The notes beneath the pieces are model-generated. The model was not told the DNA's origin, did no database searches, and was given only the letters and a program-made list of their open reading frames with translations. Both the position numbers and the translations under genes were made by a program. Below are positions 9,025 through 31,976 of a stretch of 39,523 bases of DNA, one piece after another (positions within the stretch are counted from its first letter, which is position 1; each line of letters opens with the position of its first letter). The stretch lies in NCBI GenBank assembly GCA_964575575.1, contig CAZNQQ010000005.1, positions 1 through 39,523 on the forward strand, written 5' to 3'. Origin of the DNA: an uncultured Candidatus Saccharibacteria bacterium (lineage in GTDB: Bacteria; Patescibacteriota; Minisyncoccia; Phycocordibacterales; UBA2163).

Positions 9025-9834
9025 CTATTTTAAGCCATTTAGGAACATCCTAAATGCATTGTTTACAAGCACATCTTGTACTTTCTCTATATTTTCACCT
9101 CTTATTTCAGCAATTCTCTTAACTACCTCTTTTACGTGTATTGGCTCGCACCTTCTACCTCTATGAGGCACCGGAGCAACAAACGGGCAATCAGTCTCTG
9201 ACATTATACTTTCAAGTGGAATCTCTCTTATTATCTCATCATAGCTGTCTGCAAACGTTATTACTCCTGTAAAAGAAAGCGTAAAGCCTATCTCTACGAA
9301 CCTCTTTGCAATCTCTAAATTACCCGCAAAGAAGTGTGAGTTGCCTCGGAGCTTGTCACCATGTTCTTTTTTGTACCCACTTAGTATCTCAAGCCCATCT
9401 TCATATGCATCCATGCTTTCCCCCGACGGCCTGAAATGCAACATGAGCGGAAGATTATTTTCTAAAGCAAACTCAATTTGTTTAATAAAATTACTCTTTT
9501 GTCTTTTTTTATCGTCTTCGTTACCATTTAATCTAAAGTAATCCAAACCACACTCGCCTACTGCAACCACTTTTTTATTTTTCACCAATTCTTTATAGTC
9601 ATCTTTATTAAAATTTTCTTTTTTATTGTCATCTGGATGAAGTCCTACAGTCGCATAAACATTTTCATTTTTTTCAGCTAGCTCTACAACTTCTTTTGAA
9701 GTTTTTAAATCAGTACCCACAACAATAGCCCACACATCTTCACTGCGCATTCTGTCTATAACCTCATCTCTGTCATTATCAAACTTAGAGAAATTAATAT
9801 GTGAATGTATATCAAAATATTTCGGTTTCATCAT
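9025..9834 (-). CDS. tatD: TatD family nuclease
   Basis: DIHSH, VGLHP, AVGECGLDY, LMLH.R, SETDCPFVAP; likely start MMKPKY at 9834. Confidence 0.95.
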   Translation of the reverse strand: MMKPKYFDIHSHINFSKFDNDRDEVIDRMRSEDVWAIVVGTDLKTSKEVVELAEKNENVYATVGLHPDDNKKENFNKDDYKELVKNKKVVAVGECGLDYFRLNGNEDDKKRQKSNFIKQIEFALENNLPLMLHFRPSGESMDAYEDGLEILSGYKKEHGDKLRGNSHFFAGNLEIAKRFVEIGFTLSFTGVITFADSYDEIIREIPLESIMSETDCPFVAPVPHRGRRCEPIHVKEVVKRIAEIRGENIEKVQDVLVNNAFRMFLNGLK

Positions 9835-9849
9835 AAACTCAATTGTAAC

Positions 9850-9890
9850 AAAAAACCCCCAATGTCCAACTTGAAATTGGATATGGGGGT
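9850..9890 (-). terminator. Intrinsic terminator after pyrC
   Basis: Minus-strand hairpin ACCCCCATATCCAA-loop-TTGGACATTGGGGG followed by a T-run. Confidence 0.75.
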
Positions 9891-9896
9891 GTACAT

Positions 9897-10961
9897 CTAA
9901 TTTTTTACTGCATTCTCTAATATCTTCCATTGCAACTTCTCTCCTGCCATAAATGGTCGGATTCCATTACAAAGCATTGGTACTGTCCAATCTTTTCGTA
10001 TGAGGGTTGTATAATCTTCTATAGGCTCAATATCATACACCTTTTCAAGAAGATTTACTGCCAAGAAGTCATTCAAGTGTCCAAGCTTTGCATTTTCTTC
10101 TATAAAGACCTGTGTATACAATTCTGTTTTATGAAGTCCTGTAAATATCCCTGGTTTACCTGCAAGCTTATCTTTTACATAATGAGCTGCTGAATCACTA
10201 CCTGCTCCAAAATTCTTTCTTATATTTTCATCCTCCGATGTCACAGCTCTCCTTATCGCCAAACGATCTTCTCTACTATTAAGAACTGGGAGGCAGAAGT
10301 AAAATGGATCAAACTCACCATCATAATTATCATGAACAGTCTCGTCTTTTATAAGATGGTGTGCAGTAACCGTTGCCCAAATATTTTCATTTTCTATCAC
10401 AAAGTCTACCGCCTCTTTTGTAGAAACATGTTCCATAACTATCTTTAGTCCCGGGAAATGATGCAGCAATAGTGGCAAAATTTTATCAACAAATATTCTC
10501 TCCCTATCGTAATAACCTATACCATCTCCGACCACTTCTCCATGTAATGAAAGCGGCATTCTGATCTCCTGCATTCTGTCAAAAACAGGGTACATTCTTT
10601 TAATATCAGTTACGCCATCTTCAGAATTATTTGTCGCACCTGCTGGATACAACTTCGCCAAGCCCCAAACACCCCTTCTGAACCCTTCTTCAAGTTTGTC
10701 TATATCTGTATTGTCTGTAAGATAATACGTCATATATGGATCAAACTTAATTTCTTCTCGTTGGGACAAAAAACTAATCTGTCCTTCATACTTTATTGCC
10801 CTCTCAATAGTATTAATTATCTCCTTGAGATTTGGCATTGCGATTGCCCCACTAGCCTGCAAGAATGTAAACAATGCAATAGCATGAAGCAAATCATCTT
10901 CTCTAAAATGCATATGTCTATCAAACAACCTTCTAACTTTCAGACTTTCTATCTTTTGCAT
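9897..10961 (-). CDS. pyrC: Dihydroorotase (type II, E. coli PyrC-like)
   Basis: DRHMHFR, AMPNL, AKLYPAGATNNSEDGV, LHGEV, VMEHVST, TAHHL, FCLPVL, GSDSAAH; SD AAGGAG before ATG 10961. Confidence 0.9.
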   Translation of the reverse strand: MQKIESLKVRRLFDRHMHFREDDLLHAIALFTFLQASGAIAMPNLKEIINTIERAIKYEGQISFLSQREEIKFDPYMTYYLTDNTDIDKLEEGFRRGVWGLAKLYPAGATNNSEDGVTDIKRMYPVFDRMQEIRMPLSLHGEVVGDGIGYYDRERIFVDKILPLLLHHFPGLKIVMEHVSTKEAVDFVIENENIWATVTAHHLIKDETVHDNYDGEFDPFYFCLPVLNSREDRLAIRRAVTSEDENIRKNFGAGSDSAAHYVKDKLAGKPGIFTGLHKTELYTQVFIEENAKLGHLNDFLAVNLLEKVYDIEPIEDYTTLIRKDWTVPMLCNGIRPFMAGEKLQWKILENAVKN

Positions 10962-26135: not shown

Positions 26136-26465
26136 TTACCTATTATCTCCGTCTGCATGTAATACACCTCTGTCATTACGAGATGCTAATTTCTCTATGT
26201 TGTTTGTTGCAACATCGTCTAATTCTAAATCAAGCTCTGTCGACATTTGGGCTATATACCACAAGACATCTCCCAATTCTTTTTTAATTTCCTGTACCTG
26301 ATCAGCAGTTAATTTTGTTTGACCACTACGTAACACTTTTTTGATCTTATTAGCTACTTCTCCCGCTTCTCCAGCTAAGCCAAGTGTTGGGTAAATAAAG
26401 TTGTTTCCACTATCTTTATATATAGCTGTCTTTTTAGCTTCTTTTTGATATTCATTAAAATTCAT
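26136..26465 (-). CDS. MazG-like all-alpha NTP pyrophosphohydrolase
   Basis: MNFNEYQ...YPTLGLAGEAGEVANKIKK...KKELGDVLWY...NIEKLASR. Confidence 0.92.
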   Translation of the reverse strand: MNFNEYQKEAKKTAIYKDSGNNFIYPTLGLAGEAGEVANKIKKVLRSGQTKLTADQVQEIKKELGDVLWYIAQMSTELDLELDDVATNNIEKLASRNDRGVLHADGDNR

Positions 26466-26550
26466 ATGTATATTATACCATTAAAATTAAGCTGATATTG
26501 TACAGTATAGTCAACTTACTCTATATACATATACATTGTATACTTTTATT

Positions 26551-27450
26551 ATGAAACACAAACTGACTCTCAAAAAGACAGTTGGCCTTAACGATTTACG
26601 TAAAGTATTAAGAAAAGTTAAGTTCAGAGGGCTTTATAACAAAAAAGGTGGGGAGCTGTATCCATACAAGAACGCAAAAATCTCAATTGCAACACTTTAC
26701 CCTCAAAAAGAAATGGGTGGCTCACCCGCCATTAAAGTAAATGGGAAAAACGAACCCCTCTTCTCTCCACAGCCGACAATATACGAAAACCAATTAGACA
26801 TTATAAAAACTTTGCATAAATTTCTAGAGAGTGAGGGACTTTCAATAAACGAACTAAAAGAAGCTGTGGAATATGAATGGAAAGGAAGAGGAGACTTTCA
26901 TGTACTGCCACCAATTATTGAAACTCACACGTATGATCTAAAAGATGGATTTTTTGATTTAGATAAACTAACCAACAGATTTAAAAATCGTTTTGTAAAA
27001 GATGCAGCAGGAAACTTGCACGATCTTTCAAAACGATACTTGAGCTCGTTCCATATAGATGAAGTAAGCAAACTTAACCACTTAGATATTTTTCATTCAA
27101 ACGCACCGCTTATTAACTACGGACTTCAGTACAACGGGAAGCATACGTTTCATATAGTGTGTGATGGTATGCACAGGATAGACTACGCCATAGAAACGCT
27201 TAACAAACCCATAAAAGTATTGCTTATAGAGACCGGTAACAAAACACCTCTTATGCCGTATTATGCCTTTCCTGTGCCGTTTAGACCAACTATACGACTC
27301 TCAAGTAAGCGCTCTGAGAAAATGTACCCACGCATTGAAAGAGATAAGATACATCTTTTCAATAACTTCATAAAAAAAGTAATGCACTACGACTGGACAG
27401 AAGGCGGTCTCAATGTAAGCAGCCTTCGCACTAAAACAGAGATTAACTAA
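26551..27450 (+). CDS. Hypothetical protein with a ParB/sulfiredoxin-like motif
   Basis: LPPIIE...IVCDGMHRIDYA....KPIKVLLI resembles the ParB/Srx PI.V...DG.HR signature; likely start ATG 26551. Confidence 0.55.
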   Translation: MKHKLTLKKTVGLNDLRKVLRKVKFRGLYNKKGGELYPYKNAKISIATLYPQKEMGGSPAIKVNGKNEPLFSPQPTIYENQLDIIKTLHKFLESEGLSINELKEAVEYEWKGRGDFHVLPPIIETHTYDLKDGFFDLDKLTNRFKNRFVKDAAGNLHDLSKRYLSSFHIDEVSKLNHLDIFHSNAPLINYGLQYNGKHTFHIVCDGMHRIDYAIETLNKPIKVLLIETGNKTPLMPYYAFPVPFRPTIRLSSKRSEKMYPRIERDKIHLFNNFIKKVMHYDWTEGGLNVSSLRTKTEIN

Positions 27451-27452
27451 AT

Positions 27453-28331
27453 ATGGATTTTGATACACAAAGACTAAAAGATGCACTAAACTTGTGTATC
27501 ATAAAAAAAGAAGAGGACAAAAGGATCGCTTCTATCGCATACTCAAAAAGTGGTAAGAGTTATAGTGGAGCACACATAGGTTCTGACACAAACTTGTTGA
27601 GTATATTTTCTGAACAAGTTGCGCTTTTGGGCGCAATGCAGAACAATGACTTTCAAATAGAAAGTGTCGTCACTATGTTAGAGACACCTAACGAAAAAGA
27701 AATTATTTCTCCCATAATAATAAAATTACTTATAGACTTCGCTAGGAGAACTGGTCAAGACATAAAATATACAGTTATAGATCGGGAAGGAAACATGCTT
27801 TTCAACATAGACAATATATCTTCCATTCTTCCATTCTACAAACCTGAGCGTGTTTTTTTAAAAAAGGTTGAGAACACAGAAATACAATCCAACAAAGCAA
27901 AACTTCCTAAAGATTCTGAAATAAAAGATGTGTTAAAAAAATACGCTGTTATAGGTGTAGACAGAAACTTTCCAAGATACGACTGTGCAAGTGGTTACGG
28001 AACTGCAGTAATAACAAAAAGTGGTAATGTTTATTTTAGTGGACAGTATTCAAGTTTTGACAAAGGAATGAATGTTCACTCCGAAATGGCAGCTGTAATA
28101 TCTGCAATTATGGAAAAAGACACAGAGATAACACACATAGGAGTTGTTTCTACAAAATACACAGACAGCCCAGCTCATATGTGCGGATGTTGTAGACAGT
28201 TTTTAGCAGAGATGATGAGTAGGTTTAATATAAATCCAGAACTGTTTCTTTTTGCAAAAGATACTGATGTTTATGAAAAAAGAAATATGAATGAATATTT
28301 ACCAGACATTTGGACAAGTAAAAAATGGTAA
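27453..28331 (+). CDS. Tandem cytidine-deaminase-fold protein (N-domain degenerate, C-domain with Zn motif)
   Basis: C-domain YGTAVITKSGNVYFSG...VHSEMAAV...HMCGCCRQFLAE...EYLPD.W; N-domain SKSGKSYSG...FSEQVAL lacks the CxxC. Confidence 0.85.
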   Translation: MDFDTQRLKDALNLCIIKKEEDKRIASIAYSKSGKSYSGAHIGSDTNLLSIFSEQVALLGAMQNNDFQIESVVTMLETPNEKEIISPIIIKLLIDFARRTGQDIKYTVIDREGNMLFNIDNISSILPFYKPERVFLKKVENTEIQSNKAKLPKDSEIKDVLKKYAVIGVDRNFPRYDCASGYGTAVITKSGNVYFSGQYSSFDKGMNVHSEMAAVISAIMEKDTEITHIGVVSTKYTDSPAHMCGCCRQFLAEMMSRFNINPELFLFAKDTDVYEKRNMNEYLPDIWTSKKW

Positions 28332-30733
28332 ATATGAAGACAAACTTCCCAGTAATAGACGCTCTACTTTTAACCCCCAATGAAGGCCGTGGTGGCGAAA
28401 TAGGTATATGTACCAACACCACTGCTTCAGGGCAAGTTTTAAACGAAATAGACAACAAGTACAGAAAGCAGGTCTCTGTACTTGGTTCCCTTATAGTAAG
28501 CCGTGATGGCACAGAAAGGATGATCATAAACTCCCTAGCCCACCCTACCGTTACTTATCTGATACTGTTCTCAGAAGAATCTATAACCTTCTCTCCAAGC
28601 ACAAACTTGCTACAGGCAATACAAAAAGGATTCGAGAAAAATGTTTCGGGTAATTATATAAGAGACGGAGTAGCTGCAAGTGCGCAGTACCCAAATATAT
28701 CCGAGCAGATATTTGACGCTTTTAAAGACAGTATAGTAGTACTTCCTGTTTTTGTGTCTAAAAACAAAGAAAGTAAAAAAATAGTAAACTCATACTTGAA
28801 AATATTAAAGCCAAAAGTTCCAAAAGAAGTTTATGAAACTATCGTAAAGATAAACAATAAGAAAAAAATCTACTACGACTCTTTAAACGAACTTTTAGAA
28901 AGTTTACAAAAAGTAAAACACAAAAAGAAAACTGTTCCATATCTTAATGCAAAAGACTTTCAGCATTTGCAACCACCAAGGATAGTGCTTAAAGAAAGCA
29001 AAACAAAAAAGAAAGTTCCTTTCAAAGTAACAGCAGAAGATGGAATGGTACGTGTTGATATTCAAATACATGATAAAGTGTATTATATTAAAGCAAAGAC
29101 AGAGTTTCATTTGGAGTATTCTCTTATGAAATTTTTAGGAAAAGACAAATCTATATTGTCTATAGAAGAACAAATACTTCTTGGTGCAGAAATCGGACGT
29201 GTCGGTACAGAAATAGCAAACAATATCTCTATCCCCTCTCTTGTACAAAAGAACAACATAGTAGGCAAAAAAGAAATCCACCTTGAGTCTAGTATGAACC
29301 TAAAAGTAGACAAAAAGTATTATTACAAAATCAGTACAAAAGACAAAAAGGTTTCTTGTATGTGTATGGCTTTTGATATATGCGAAGAAGTATTTGAATT
29401 ACAATCAAAAAGTATTTCTTCAATAATAAAAAGGTTGGCAGAGCTAAATAGATTTGAAAACTATGAGATGGATATACTACACAGGATGGACATAGGAACA
29501 CAACTTGGAAGAGCGTATGTTGCGTCAAGTAAAAACTATTCTTTCATACAAGACTTTTCAAATATCTTCCAGATAAACACAAGTGACTTACCGTTTGTTA
29601 TAGCAGATGGTGACAACTTCCTAGATGTACACAAATCAGTACTTCAGCAAATATATACCAAAGGCATCACTGAAGAACATGGCGATGTATGGAAAGGACC
29701 AGCTAGAACAGCCTCTGTTTTAGCCATTTATAGAGATTCCCAGAACGCTCTTAAGACAATGCCTATGCTATACAAGCAAGGCGATGATTCTACCAAAGTA
29801 ATGCGTGAGTCATATAAGAAACAGCTTTTGCGTTTTGACAGCGACGGTTCATATAGCTATGGAGAGCGAACTAGATCTTTCTTTGATTTTGACCAACTTA
29901 AAAATACTATAAAAGTCTTAAAGAAAAACAAAAACAAAGCTACCGTAGTCCAAAGGTTTGACCCAACACGAGATATGGGTACATATGTTGAAAAAGAGAC
30001 TGGTATAACAAAATTCACACACGACCCATGCCTTACACACGATATATTTTTTATAAAAAACAATAAATTATATTCGTTCCATATAGCACGTGCACACAAT
30101 ACAGTAAACGCATACCCTGAAAATATATTTGGTCTTTATGATGCATATGCAACAACTATTAGAAAATCATTGAAAATAAAAGGTGGTGATATGTTTATGC
30201 TTTCAAACAGAGCAAATATTCTCCTCCTTACAGAAGAACAAAAAACAAAAAGAATACTTGGTGAACCTTCAAAACCACTTGATCATAAGAGTGACAAATC
30301 TATAGGGCCACACCTGGTTGGTAAAAATGTAAAAACACCGAAAAAGTCAGGTGGAATAGTATATGAACATCTTAATTTGAAAATAATTACTAAAAGACCG
30401 AAAAATAAAATACTTGATGCTCTTGAAAACCTAAAAGGTGTGAATACTATCGCGCGAGCGATAACATATTTGAAAGAAAAGGGTGTGATGCACAACAACA
30501 CAGTACTTTCAGACTATGTGGCCGGTGAGTCTGACCCACAAGATGATGTACTTGCATTCTTCCAAGCAAATATATTTGGAGACAAGCTTCATGCTACTGC
30601 AGTGTTTACAAACAGAGCGCTTTCAAACAAAACCAAAGACATAGAGATGTGTAACTATATTGCAAGCAAACATGCAAAAGAGTTGAAAAGTAAACTCGGA
30701 ACACTTACACTGTTCTACATAGCATACAAATAA
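28325..30733 (+). CDS. Multidomain MtrA-like + DUF4346-like + thymidylate-synthase-like protein
   Basis: GTERMIINSLAHPTVTYLILFSEE (MtrA-like); DKKYYYKI...LHRMDIGTQLGRA...FIQD (DUF4346-like); YSYGERTR...DQL...DPCL...RAHN...YPEN (TS fold). Confidence 0.75.
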   Translation: MVNMKTNFPVIDALLLTPNEGRGGEIGICTNTTASGQVLNEIDNKYRKQVSVLGSLIVSRDGTERMIINSLAHPTVTYLILFSEESITFSPSTNLLQAIQKGFEKNVSGNYIRDGVAASAQYPNISEQIFDAFKDSIVVLPVFVSKNKESKKIVNSYLKILKPKVPKEVYETIVKINNKKKIYYDSLNELLESLQKVKHKKKTVPYLNAKDFQHLQPPRIVLKESKTKKKVPFKVTAEDGMVRVDIQIHDKVYYIKAKTEFHLEYSLMKFLGKDKSILSIEEQILLGAEIGRVGTEIANNISIPSLVQKNNIVGKKEIHLESSMNLKVDKKYYYKISTKDKKVSCMCMAFDICEEVFELQSKSISSIIKRLAELNRFENYEMDILHRMDIGTQLGRAYVASSKNYSFIQDFSNIFQINTSDLPFVIADGDNFLDVHKSVLQQIYTKGITEEHGDVWKGPARTASVLAIYRDSQNALKTMPMLYKQGDDSTKVMRESYKKQLLRFDSDGSYSYGERTRSFFDFDQLKNTIKVLKKNKNKATVVQRFDPTRDMGTYVEKETGITKFTHDPCLTHDIFFIKNNKLYSFHIARAHNTVNAYPENIFGLYDAYATTIRKSLKIKGGDMFMLSNRANILLLTEEQKTKRILGEPSKPLDHKSDKSIGPHLVGKNVKTPKKSGGIVYEHLNLKIITKRPKNKILDALENLKGVNTIARAITYLKEKGVMHNNTVLSDYVAGESDPQDDVLAFFQANIFGDKLHATAVFTNRALSNKTKDIEMCNYIASKHAKELKSKLGTLTLFYIAYK

Positions 30734-30734
30734 A

Positions 30735-31403
30735 ATGATTGATTATAAAAACAAAATTAAAGTTATTGGTTTTGATTTAGACCAGACACTATACCCCAAA
30801 TCCCCAAAGATAGACGAGGCTATACAGGGCTATATATATGAAAAGATAGCTAAGCATAGGGGGTGCACTCTAGAGGAGGCGGAAAAGCTGTTTAAAGACC
30901 TGTACAAAGAGGGTTCTGGGCTTTCTGGGACAAGTACACTGAAAGAACTTGAGATACCAGGTGCAACAGATATAGTGCAAGAAGCGTTAGAAAATGCTGA
31001 CATAGCGGAGTTTTTAGCTCCTAATAACGAAGTATTTGAGCTTTTAAATAAATTGAAAGAACGGTATAAAAATATAGATTTAATAACTGGCTCTGATCAA
31101 CAAAACGCATTTCAAAAAATGGAGCATATGAATATCTCAAAGGAAATGTTCTCAAACATAATTACAGGGGATGTAGCGTCCAAGTCAGACGGAAGTGCAT
31201 TTGAGCTTTGGATGTCATATTATAATGACATATCTCCAGAAGAATTTTTATATATCGGCGACAGACCTTCTTCTGACTATTTCGCTCCAAAAGAATTAAA
31301 TATAAATGCAATCCTAGTAAATGTACCAAAGGAAAAAGCGGACACTGATATACAGTGCCCGCAACTCTCTTCCCTAAAAGATTTGAAGGATTATTTACTA
31401 TAA
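30735..31403 (+). CDS. HAD-superfamily hydrolase (nucleotidase/phosphatase-like)
   Basis: Motif I FDLDQTLY, motif II ITGS, motif III K, motif IV YIGDRPSSD. Confidence 0.92.
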   Translation: MIDYKNKIKVIGFDLDQTLYPKSPKIDEAIQGYIYEKIAKHRGCTLEEAEKLFKDLYKEGSGLSGTSTLKELEIPGATDIVQEALENADIAEFLAPNNEVFELLNKLKERYKNIDLITGSDQQNAFQKMEHMNISKEMFSNIITGDVASKSDGSAFELWMSYYNDISPEEFLYIGDRPSSDYFAPKELNINAILVNVPKEKADTDIQCPQLSSLKDLKDYLL

Positions 31404-31976
31404 AAATAATTTATTTTTTGTTTCATCATCTAGTGATATCCATACAAAATAAGTAGTAATACCTGTCTTTTTATTATACTCAGTATATCCATCTTCTTTA
31501 AACTGATCGTATGTGAGAAAAACTATTCTGTCACTGAAAATAGGTTTTCTTTCAAGACCAGGGTAACTAATGGTATCTAAAGTATCTAGACTAAGGCTAT
31601 CGCGAGTTTCTTGCTTGATTTTACTTTCGATTCCGAGTTCCTCAGCAACAGCTCTTTCCGCAACTTTTTCAAACTCTTCCTCTATAGAAAACTTTTCGCT
31701 TATATGTAAAAGATTTCTTTTCCTTCCACGCCCATCATCAAACACCTGCTTTGACTCTTTAAGAATGAGTGATTTATTGTTTTTGTAATAAATTACATGC
31801 ACCCTCATTATAGATACCTCTCTATGAATACCCTTTTTTGAAATTACAAGTCTACAATCTCCATTACTTGTTTCATCTAATAGGTTTTGCATAGTTTTTG
31901 CTTCACCTTTACCAAATTTCTCAATTGGGATATTAAATGAATCAAGTAATTTCGCTAAATTATTAACATCAAACAC
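31398..31976 (-). CDS. Hypothetical protein with a Nudix-like box
   Basis: SEKFSIEEEFEKVAERAVAEELGI resembles a degenerate Nudix motif; SYPGL. Confidence 0.55.
   Translation of the reverse strand: MFDVNNLAKLLDSFNIPIEKFGKGEAKTMQNLLDETSNGDCRLVISKKGIHREVSIMRVHVIYYKNNKSLILKESKQVFDDGRGRKRNLLHISEKFSIEEEFEKVAERAVAEELGIESKIKQETRDSLSLDTLDTISYPGLERKPIFSDRIVFLTYDQFKEDGYTEYNKKTGITTYFVWISLDDETKNKLFL

Follow-up and report, generated by a model that had tools for sequence, protein, structure and literature searches.

The window analysed here is a stretch of 39,523 nucleotides from an uncultured Candidatus Saccharibacteria bacterium (contig CAZNQQ010000005.1 of assembly GCA_964575575.1). It encodes a protein, referred to below as the fusion, in which a thymidylate synthase (TS) domain is joined to four further domains. 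The gene is the third of a four-gene cassette with the order ParB-CE (a ParB/Srx-type protein), double cytidine deaminase, fusion and haloacid dehalogenase (HAD) phosphatase (Table 1). Its start overlaps or abuts the stop of the deaminase gene and its stop lies 1 nt ahead of the phosphatase start. A second ATG at 28334 (Met4) is an equally plausible start: the closest homologue, with 89% identity, has 799 residues, and the start-site sequence permits either.

Table 1. Genes and domains of the cassette region, with positions in the window.
Feature	Position	Strand	Basis
MazG-type nucleotide pyrophosphohydrolase, 109 aa, divergent from the cassette	26136..26465	-	PHROG 229, E 1.8e-37
ParB-CE (ParB/Srx-type), first cassette gene	26536..27450	+	PF24392, E 1.5e-8
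Double cytidine-deaminase-fold gene	27453..28331	+	Family matches; motif conservation
Fusion gene, whole, 802 aa	28325..30733	+	Open reading frame calling; homologue search
MtrA-fold domain, aa ~20-204	28382..28936	+	Profile matches; family profile against PDB; Foldseek
First β3-α2 module, aa ~215-300	28967..29224	+	Predicted secondary structure; no family match
Second β3-α2 module, aa 329-410, weak PterinBD-DUF4346 match	29309..29554	+	PF14251
Live archaeal-type TS domain, aa 430-652	29612..30280	+	TIGR03283; Foldseek; profile alignments
Catalytic Cys569 codon	30029..30031	+	Invariant in 42/42 aligned homologues
Dead TS copy, aa 653-802	30281..30730	+	HMM search against short-form TS domains; hhalign
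HAD phosphatase, pyrimidine-5'-nucleotidase-like, Asp14-x-Asp16 conserved	30735..31403	+	Family matches; motif conservation

Domain architecture and active site of the fusion

The fusion is a real, strongly conserved and unstudied TS variant with five modules. A homologue search that scored 7999 candidates returned 182 sequences at E≤1e-3, the best 120 of which are 777–836 residues long, share 51–89% identity with the query and cover at least 95% of it. In an alignment of 42 family sequences the mean column identity is 57%, and every region of the chain contains invariant residues. Searches with the whole protein gave nothing useful in Pfam (top match PFOR_II at E 0.082) and chance-level matches only among PDB sequences (phmmer, E 0.09–0.6); PF00303 did not match the window protein and matched four of the 42 members at E≤0.01. 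The best family match is TIGR03283 (E 3.9e-16), the methanogen-type, or short archaeal, TS (MJ0757-like). Some members bear the automatic JGI names 'thymidylate synthase' or 'thymidylate synthase/tetrahydromethanopterin S-methyltransferase subunit A'. A literature search, supplementary gene lists not covered, found no paper on an MtrA–TS fusion, DUF4346 or the cassette, and the Patescibacteria papers found mention ordinary thyA and folA only.

Structure models were built as two halves, residues 1–434 (predicted local distance difference test score, pLDDT, 82.8; predicted template modelling score, pTM, 0.76) and residues 425–802 (pLDDT 90.6, pTM 0.91). Fold searches covered the MtrA part of the N-half (model residues 11–201) and the live TS part of the C-half (model residues 6–228).

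The N-terminus adopts the Rossmann-type fold of MtrA, a likeness that an earlier note on this DNA had drawn by eye and that is confirmed at the family level. The match of the single protein is weak (NCBIfam NF002126, residues 43–148, E 6.8e-4); Pfam MtrA (PF04208) is matched at E≤0.01 by 26 of the 42 members, the family profile finds MtrA chains only in the PDB (E 0.0017–0.36), and Foldseek of the N-half model gives a probability of 1.00 for MtrA chains. The cobalt ligand His84 of MtrA, its partner Glu54 and a conserved meander are defined by Wagner et al., 2016 (PMC4915002). In hidden Markov model (HMM) alignment, His84 is matched by Phe89, which is invariant in all 42 members and is the Phe that the note had placed at the corrinoid-ligating His; Glu54 of the His-Glu relay is also lost, with Ser59 at the aligned position. 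The fusion further differs from MtrA (PDB 5LAA, 5L8X, 8Q3V) in having no membrane anchor and in being joined to TS. Conservation within the N-terminus is highest around the former cobalamin site.

Two middle segments, both described earlier as DUF4346-like, show the same predicted β3-α2 pattern. For the second the description is tentative: PF14251 aligns over profile positions 2–86 of 86 at E 0.02 and 16.1 bits (cut-off 29.6), and an HMM of the module matches the C-terminal tail of one short MtrA–TS protein (E 8.8e-6). For the first no family match was found: residues 205–310 match neither PF14251 nor any other Pfam family, and hhalign between the two segments gives only P 0.028. None of the 42 members scanned at full length matched PF14251, and residues 205–425 had no usable match in the ESM Atlas.

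The live TS domain has the TS fold (Foldseek, E 6e-11). Its active site was mapped by hhalign profile alignment to E. coli ThyA (probability 75.7, E 2.4e-5), and a joint alignment added seven stand-alone archaeal-type TS (these are of about 203–221 residues, without the four extra domains), five short fusions and two distant long forms. The residues retained are Tyr512 (Tyr94 in ThyA), Pro568-Cys569 (Cys146), Arg589 (Arg166) and Asn600 (Asn177). Tyr512, Cys569, Arg589 and Asn600 are each invariant in the 42 members and their equivalents are conserved across the whole joint alignment, in agreement with the catalytic Pro-Cys and the Asn177 equivalent already recognized by eye. In cytosine-specific enzymes of the TS fold, an Asp in place of Asn177 selects cytosine. 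This Asp, a trait of dCMP hydroxymethylase, MilA and AfhB, was not found at the position in any of the 42 members. MilA (5JP9) and phage AfhB (9IQU) are among the top fold matches of the fusion, at 15–17% identity, but act on cytosine nucleotides, whereas the fusion keeps the uracil-selecting Asn.

Around these residues the site is rewired, as had been read from the sequence. The RSCD motif of ThyA becomes Arg589-Ala590-His-Asn592, with Ser167 replaced by Ala590 and Asp169 by Asn592; the HxY motif becomes Asn-Ile-Leu, with Asn631 and Leu633 in place of His207 and Tyr209; and Arg126/Arg127 are represented by Lys538/Ala539. The change of Asp169 to Asn occurs in all 42 members and is confined to the fusion family in the joint alignment. 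Specific to the long forms as a whole, the two distant ones included, are Lys/Arg-Ala at Arg126-Arg127 and Asn/Leu or Asn/Arg at His207/Tyr209. Of the seven stand-alone enzymes aligned, six keep Arg126-Arg127, six Arg-Ser, seven Asp169, seven His207 and four Tyr209, whereas the fusion has Lys-Ala, Arg-Ala-His-Asn and Asn-Ile-Leu at these sites. The substitutions are thus absent from the stand-alone archaeal-type TS retrieved, which are themselves unassayed.

Other departures from ThyA are not special to the fusion, since Leu or Met at His147 and the missing Trp80/Trp83 segment are present in all archaeal-type sequences aligned. The fusion shares them with the methanogen-type TS, together with the compact TS fold and the Tyr94, Cys146, Arg166 and Asn177 equivalents. 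Compared with ThyA (EC 2.1.1.45; E. coli, L. casei), the fusion is changed at Arg127, His147, Ser167, Asp169, His207 and Tyr209, and the C-terminal lid (E. coli residues 228–264) has no aligned counterpart. The invariant Arg461 may match Arg21 by eye, though the joint alignment places a Glu there. A search for shorter relatives of the TS domain gave 18 matches, all of them fragments of the same family on short contigs.

The C-terminal 150 residues are a second, dead TS copy. In a set of ten sequences, eight of them distinct, an HMM of residues 653–802 matched the TS domains of three short MtrA–TS proteins at E 2.2e-7, 4.8e-6 and 1.3e-5, in register. It is this search that decided the matter, hhalign by itself being too weak: the dead copy aligned with ThyA and with the fusion's own TS domain at P 0.011–0.035 in a constant register, and controls with unrelated domains gave mostly P 0.14–0.47, with one at 0.049 and one at 0.011 on a different 21-column stretch in the TS N-half. 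Opposite the live Pro-Cys the copy has Gln/Asp-Leu, opposite Arg-Ser-Asn-Asp it has Ala-x-Asn-Arg, and opposite Pro-Glu-Asn it has Leu-Glu-Glu-Asp; the catalytic Cys, the RSxD motif and Asn177 are all missing. A degenerate TS-like domain had been suspected earlier and is upheld in kind, but not in its size of about 100 residues.

In ThyA dimers, two loop arginines reach into the partner's active site and complete its phosphate site. The family-invariant His723-Asn724-Asn725 of the dead copy align with this Ser-Arg-Arg (Arg126/Arg127) loop, and the copy therefore likely stands in for a second subunit. The live and dead domains are modelled as one compact unit, and the dead copy most likely occupies the second subunit's place, with a dimer-like packing predicted from the homology. 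ThyA is a homodimer; the fusion would be an internal pseudo-dimer, which supports the single-chain arrangement that had been proposed.

The cassette and the genomes that carry it

The cassette was surveyed in 52 loci found by scanning one genome per species. Upstream of the fusion, ParB-CE and the deaminase are found wherever the flank is 1900 nt or longer (45 of 45 loci); downstream, the HAD gene is found in 46 of the 47 loci whose flank is 750 nt or longer. Gene order is conserved in 47 of 48. Catalytic motifs of the partners (His-x-Glu with Cys-x-x-Cys, Asp-x-Asp, and the Cys-Asp-Gly-x-His-Arg motif of ParB-CE) are kept in at least 95% of about 46–49 sequences. In the window deaminase, the second half keeps His209-x-Glu211 and Cys244-x-x-Cys247 and the first half is without zinc ligands; its family match is to nucleoside-type cytidine deaminases, not to dCMP deaminase. 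Further neighbours are dUTPase (19 of the 52 loci), serine hydroxymethyltransferase (SHMT; 14) and a NUDIX-like protein (13). In one locus (L038 in genome G326), genes for SHMT and dTMP kinase precede the cassette, the latter directly upstream by its coordinates. Ribosomal protein L11, NusG and arginyl-tRNA synthetase (ArgRS) flank the cassette in 22–31 of the 52 loci, which marks a conserved chromosomal place.

By label, 40 loci belong to the candidate phyla radiation (CPR), 10 to archaea and 2 to Gammaproteobacteria. CPR labels include Nomura-, Kaiser-, Zambryski-, Vogel-, Sungii-, Peri- and Gracilibacteria, Paceibacterota and 'Saccharibacteria'; the archaeal loci (Woesearchaeota, Nanoarchaeia, Iainarchaeum, one 'Methanosarcinales' and others unnamed) encode fusions of 40–46% identity. 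Three loci sit oddly among these: L037 and L052 are short contigs in bins labelled Gammaproteobacteria, and L046 is in the bin labelled Methanosarcinales. They look like binning errors and not true hosts, because their fusions are 45–55% identical to the CPR and DPANN versions. The distribution is sparse, with a full-length fusion gene in only 2 of 301 evenly sampled Patescibacteria genomes.

Genomes with the cassette almost never carry ThyA, ThyX, dihydrofolate reductase (DHFR) or thymidine kinase. Fifty genomes were tallied (the 52 loci without L037 and L052) against a background of the 301 Patescibacteria, which includes the unpublished G154, counted once each in the ThyA and DHFR tallies. 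PF00303 was matched in four of the 50, of which two matches are the fusion itself, one is a 130-residue ThyA fragment and one a separate TS-like frame of 418 residues; ThyX was found in two, one under the cut-off. Another ThyA- or ThyX-type gene over the cut-off is thus present in 3 of 50 cassette genomes, compared with 260 of the 301 background genomes (PF00303/ThyA-type in 144, ThyX in 123). The Fisher test for this difference gives p 4e-29, a value that overstates the case because related genomes are not independent. DHFR is over the cut-off in one cassette genome, with three more weak matches, thymidine kinase is found in 4 and SHMT in 28; the background has 130 genomes with DHFR. Within the background, DHFR follows the type of TS: 113 of 122 genomes that have an ordinary ThyA carry it, as do none of 41 with neither ThyA nor ThyX and none of 22 whose sole TS match is a fusion-like frame of 470–600 residues.

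The genome of the window, of 615 kb and 97.7% completeness, fits this pattern. Profile searches found no ThyA, ThyX (PF02511), SHMT, DHFR (PF00186), FolD or deoxynucleoside kinase (dNK) in it, and a thymidine kinase match of 14.9 bits is sub-threshold. An apparent dTMP kinase match was rejected, as it proved to be adenylate kinase. The sole ribonucleotide reductase found (L072:49-2424, contig C18) belongs with the adenosylcobalamin-dependent triphosphate reductases (TIGR02505, E 5e-86, a score under the cut-off), which implies that this tiny genome depends on imported corrinoid and makes dNTPs directly.

A probable role in thymidylate synthesis and its alternatives

The accepted view of thymidylate synthesis recognises two enzyme families: ThyA, which works with DHFR, and ThyX. 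From its context, the fusion is predicted to be a DHFR-independent dTMP synthase of the CPR and DPANN organisms that carry the cassette, a reading to which we give a probability of roughly 60%. In the proposed mechanism, two sources would feed the dUMP pool: dUTP, through the dUTPase or MazG encoded nearby, and cytosine compounds, through the cassette deaminase. Cys569 would add to C6 of the uracil, selected by Asn600, with Tyr512 and Arg589 retained in the site. C5 would then take up a one-carbon unit, most simply from methylene-tetrahydrofolate made by SHMT, and the product would be dTMP. TS is normally an obligate homodimer; here the dead copy would take the role of the second subunit, offering His723-Asn724-Asn725 where a partner would give two arginines. 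In the least certain step, the MtrA-like and DUF4346-like modules would handle the cofactor so that a FolA-type DHFR becomes unnecessary; their task may be to keep hold of the pterin or reduce it again, or to provide reducing or one-carbon equivalents. An altered handling of the one-carbon or pterin cofactor had also been suggested in the earlier note, and is now favoured indirectly by the family-specific Asn592 and by the frequency of FolA-type DHFR, which is over the cut-off in a single one of the 50 cassette genomes but found in 113 of the 122 that have an ordinary ThyA. On the altered substrate that the note also raised, a ribonucleotide or nucleoside, the evidence is divided: three of the five phosphate ligands differ, while dUTPase in 19 of 52 loci and a dTMP kinase directly upstream in one locus point to dUMP and dTMP.

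A TS joined to a module that deals with spent cofactor has a counterpart in the bifunctional DHFR-TS of protozoa and plants. ThyX, the flavin-dependent enzyme, is a thymidylate synthase that needs no DHFR according to PMC9012536, where the cofactor use of the methanogen-type TS itself is also given as unsettled. Both parallels are functional analogies only: the fusion has neither a DHFR nor a ThyX fold, and no homology to either was found. If the prediction is true, the fusion, with its internal live/dead pseudo-dimer and fused cofactor modules, would add a third way of carrying out a step that DNA synthesis cannot do without. It would close a gap in the reconstructed metabolism of CPR and DPANN organisms and offer enzymologists a natural experiment on uncoupling TS from DHFR.

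Several observations weigh against this assignment. The TIGR03283 score is 59.2 bits, compared with a cut-off of 174.55. Asn592 replaces, in every member aligned, the residue that ThyA requires for opening the cofactor ring (Asp169, according to the title of PDB 1bjg). Ligands of the substrate are altered as well, both of those for the 3'-OH (His207, Tyr209) and three of the five for the phosphate. The conserved 5'-nucleotidase is without an obvious role in a plain dTMP pathway. No SHMT was found in 22 of the 50 cassette genomes, and the window's own genome is without SHMT, FolD, methylenetetrahydrofolate reductase (MTHFR) and a pterin-binding protein. dTMP kinase (TIGR00041, E≤1e-10) is found in 12 of the 50, compared with 208 of the 301 background genomes. 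The completeness of the 50 genomes is not given, and related genomes among them are not independent samples. The activity itself is, for all family members, a prediction. The changed ligands, Asn592, the missing SHMT, the dTMP kinase gaps and the unexplained 5'-nucleotidase keep three alternatives alive.

The first of these is that thymidylate is reached through a substrate without the normal 5'-phosphate, for example from deoxyuridine to thymidine, in a partly nucleoside-level route. The HAD phosphatase would yield deoxycytidine, the deaminase would convert it to deoxyuridine, the fusion would methylate this, and ParB-CE would be the missing kinase. In favour of such a route are the changed phosphate ligands (Ser167 to Ala590, and Arg126'/Arg127' of the partner subunit to His723/Asn724/Asn725), the changed 3'-OH ligands, the nucleoside-type deaminase and the almost invariably present pyrimidine-5'-nucleotidase-like HAD; 38 of the 50 cassette genomes are without dTMP kinase and 46 without thymidine kinase, which leaves a kinase role open for ParB-CE. 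It is unlikely on balance. Arg589, the Arg166 equivalent, is invariant, and Arg461 is perhaps Arg21, with the reservation made above; and the extra neighbour seen most often, dUTPase, is an enzyme that makes dUMP. No family or structure match gives ParB-CE a function, and we know of no kinase activity in its ParB family.

In the second alternative, the fusion would be one of the other C5-modifying enzymes of the TS superfamily, such as a dUMP hydroxymethylase, and its product would be a 5-substituted deoxyuridine nucleotide other than that of thymine, as in phages. MilA and AfhB show that the TS fold supports other C5 chemistry and even a flavin cofactor (PMC13326640). A hydroxymethylase needs no DHFR and would suit the 49 of 50 cassette genomes without one and the 38 without dTMP kinase, and the ParB-CE clusters include phage proteins. 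Phages that replace thymine have a gene set that resembles deaminase, TS-like enzyme, 5'-nucleotidase, dUTPase or MazG, and a possible kinase. We consider this distinctly unlikely, as the carriers would be left without any thymidylate source, while 11 cassette genomes keep dTMP kinase without ThyA or ThyX, in one of them directly upstream of the cassette. The conserved location of the cassette next to the genes for L11, NusG and ArgRS also counts against it, none of the PADLOC defence models was matched by the six proteins searched (E≤0.001), and PHROG matches were of TS type only. An extension of this idea, that a base such as a hydroxymethyl deoxyuridine nucleotide made by the cassette replaces thymine chromosome-wide in CPR and DPANN carriers and that no thymidylate is made at all, is highly improbable. 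Were it true, a canonical base would be fully replaced in cellular organisms for the first time, by a phage-like set of deaminase, TS-like enzyme, 5'-nucleotidase, and dUTPase or MazG, together with a new ParB-fold kinase.

A third alternative concerns the methyl donor: the MtrA-fold domain would bind a corrinoid and pass the methyl of methyl-cobalamin to Cys-activated dUMP, with no folate oxidised. This scheme would account for the missing DHFR, and it draws on the high conservation around the former cobalamin site, on the use of corrinoids by the cell through its ribonucleotide reductase and on one short-form relative that retains the Gly-His motif. It is very unlikely: His84 and Glu54 are both replaced, a deletion falls at the His position in seven of the eight short forms examined, the window's genome has no pterin-binding methyltransferase or MTHFR for loading a corrinoid, and the folate enzyme linked to the cassette is SHMT, a source of methylene donor. 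Finally, the cassette might supply a modified pyrimidine to a secondary metabolite pathway or to phage defence, apart from DNA precursor supply. This would suit its patchy distribution (2 of 301 sampled Patescibacteria) and the use of TS-fold enzymes such as MilA in nucleoside-antibiotic pathways (named in a structure title), but is barely credible given its strong complementarity to ThyA and ThyX, the lack of PADLOC matches, the conserved synteny with core genes and genomes of 0.4–1.4 Mb that leave little room for such pathways.

Relatives and neighbouring features

Simpler relatives of the predicted DHFR-independent synthase occur as short MtrA–TS proteins (about 420–600 residues) in Patescibacteria and other uncultured microbes; all are uncharacterised. 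Like the fusion, they combine an MtrA-fold N-terminus with an archaeal-type TS, most are without the MtrA histidine, and at least one has a DUF4346-like tail motif. Unlike the fusion, they have no dead copy and a single TS domain with ordinary Ser-Arg-Arg, Arg-Ser-x-Asp and Ala-His-Ile-Tyr motifs, so they are presumably homodimers. Their identity to the fusion is 25–38%, and the one locus seen has no ParB-CE, double deaminase and HAD cassette. The example in genome G024 (L007:1234-2907; 558 residues) matches MtrA at E 7e-33 and TIGR03283 at E 4e-5; its gene lies in an operon, between those for dCMP deaminase and dTMP kinase, and the genome is without ThyA, ThyX and DHFR. Seven further short proteins were found by BLAST among 62 genomes, and one more with PF04208 among five genomes tried. 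An MtrA part was confirmed in 8 of the 22 genomes with fusion-like TS frames of 470–600 residues, in addition to G024. Short fusions of about 480–560 residues (L007, L074-L080) are thus seen in other Patescibacteria. The Gly-His of MtrA is kept only by the G024 protein; seven of eight short forms examined have a two-residue deletion at this place.

A HMMER search of 1.84 billion representative sequences found 90 relatives of the fusion at E≤1e-3: eight full-length clusters of 803–1111 residues, six distant forms of 786–877 residues with 27–29% identity, several dozen of 391–592 residues and about ten stand-alone proteins of 203–221 residues, the remainder being fragments. Two of the full-length clusters, P0144 (1111 residues) and P0146 (981 residues), have some 180–310 additional residues, as an N-terminal extension of about 300 residues in P0144 and at the C-terminus in P0146. 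The distant long forms are P0162, P0165, P0166, P0169, P0170 and P0183. Inspection of P0162 and P0165 by eye suggests a dead TS copy in each; both proteins retain Asp169, and the dead copy of P0165 has an Arg-rich loop.

ParB-CE had no PHROG match, matched PDB sequences at chance level only, and found in the ESM Atlas only clusters of the same unnamed family, phage proteins included. The order is permuted in L056, with the HAD gene followed downstream by those for ParB-CE and the deaminase. L017 is the one locus with enough flank and no HAD match; a 201-residue frame on the opposite strand (9422-10027) lies at that place. The MazG gene of the window sits where 19 of 52 related loci have dUTPase and may be its functional replacement; a MazG relative is found in one of the 52. 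An open reading frame of 192 residues at 31398-31976 on the reverse strand has no Pfam match of its own. Its relatives in four of the five matching loci are the neighbour family present in 13 of 52 loci, whose representative is weakly NUDIX-like (E 6e-7).

Two observations concern thymidylate metabolism in Patescibacteria at large. At the threshold used above for TIGR00041, dTMP kinase was not found in 93 of the 301 genomes, and whole families are hit (f31, 0 of 14; f15, 0 of 5), which suggests that the enzyme is divergent or replaced well beyond the cassette carriers. In addition, many Patescibacteria have two ThyX stretches in a single frame of 460–620 residues, and frames of 737–790 residues join dTMP kinase to two ThyX stretches; examples of these tandem ThyX and Tmk-ThyX-ThyX fusions are G218:C1:260935-263040, G063:C1:331399-333612 and G340:C58:700-2865.

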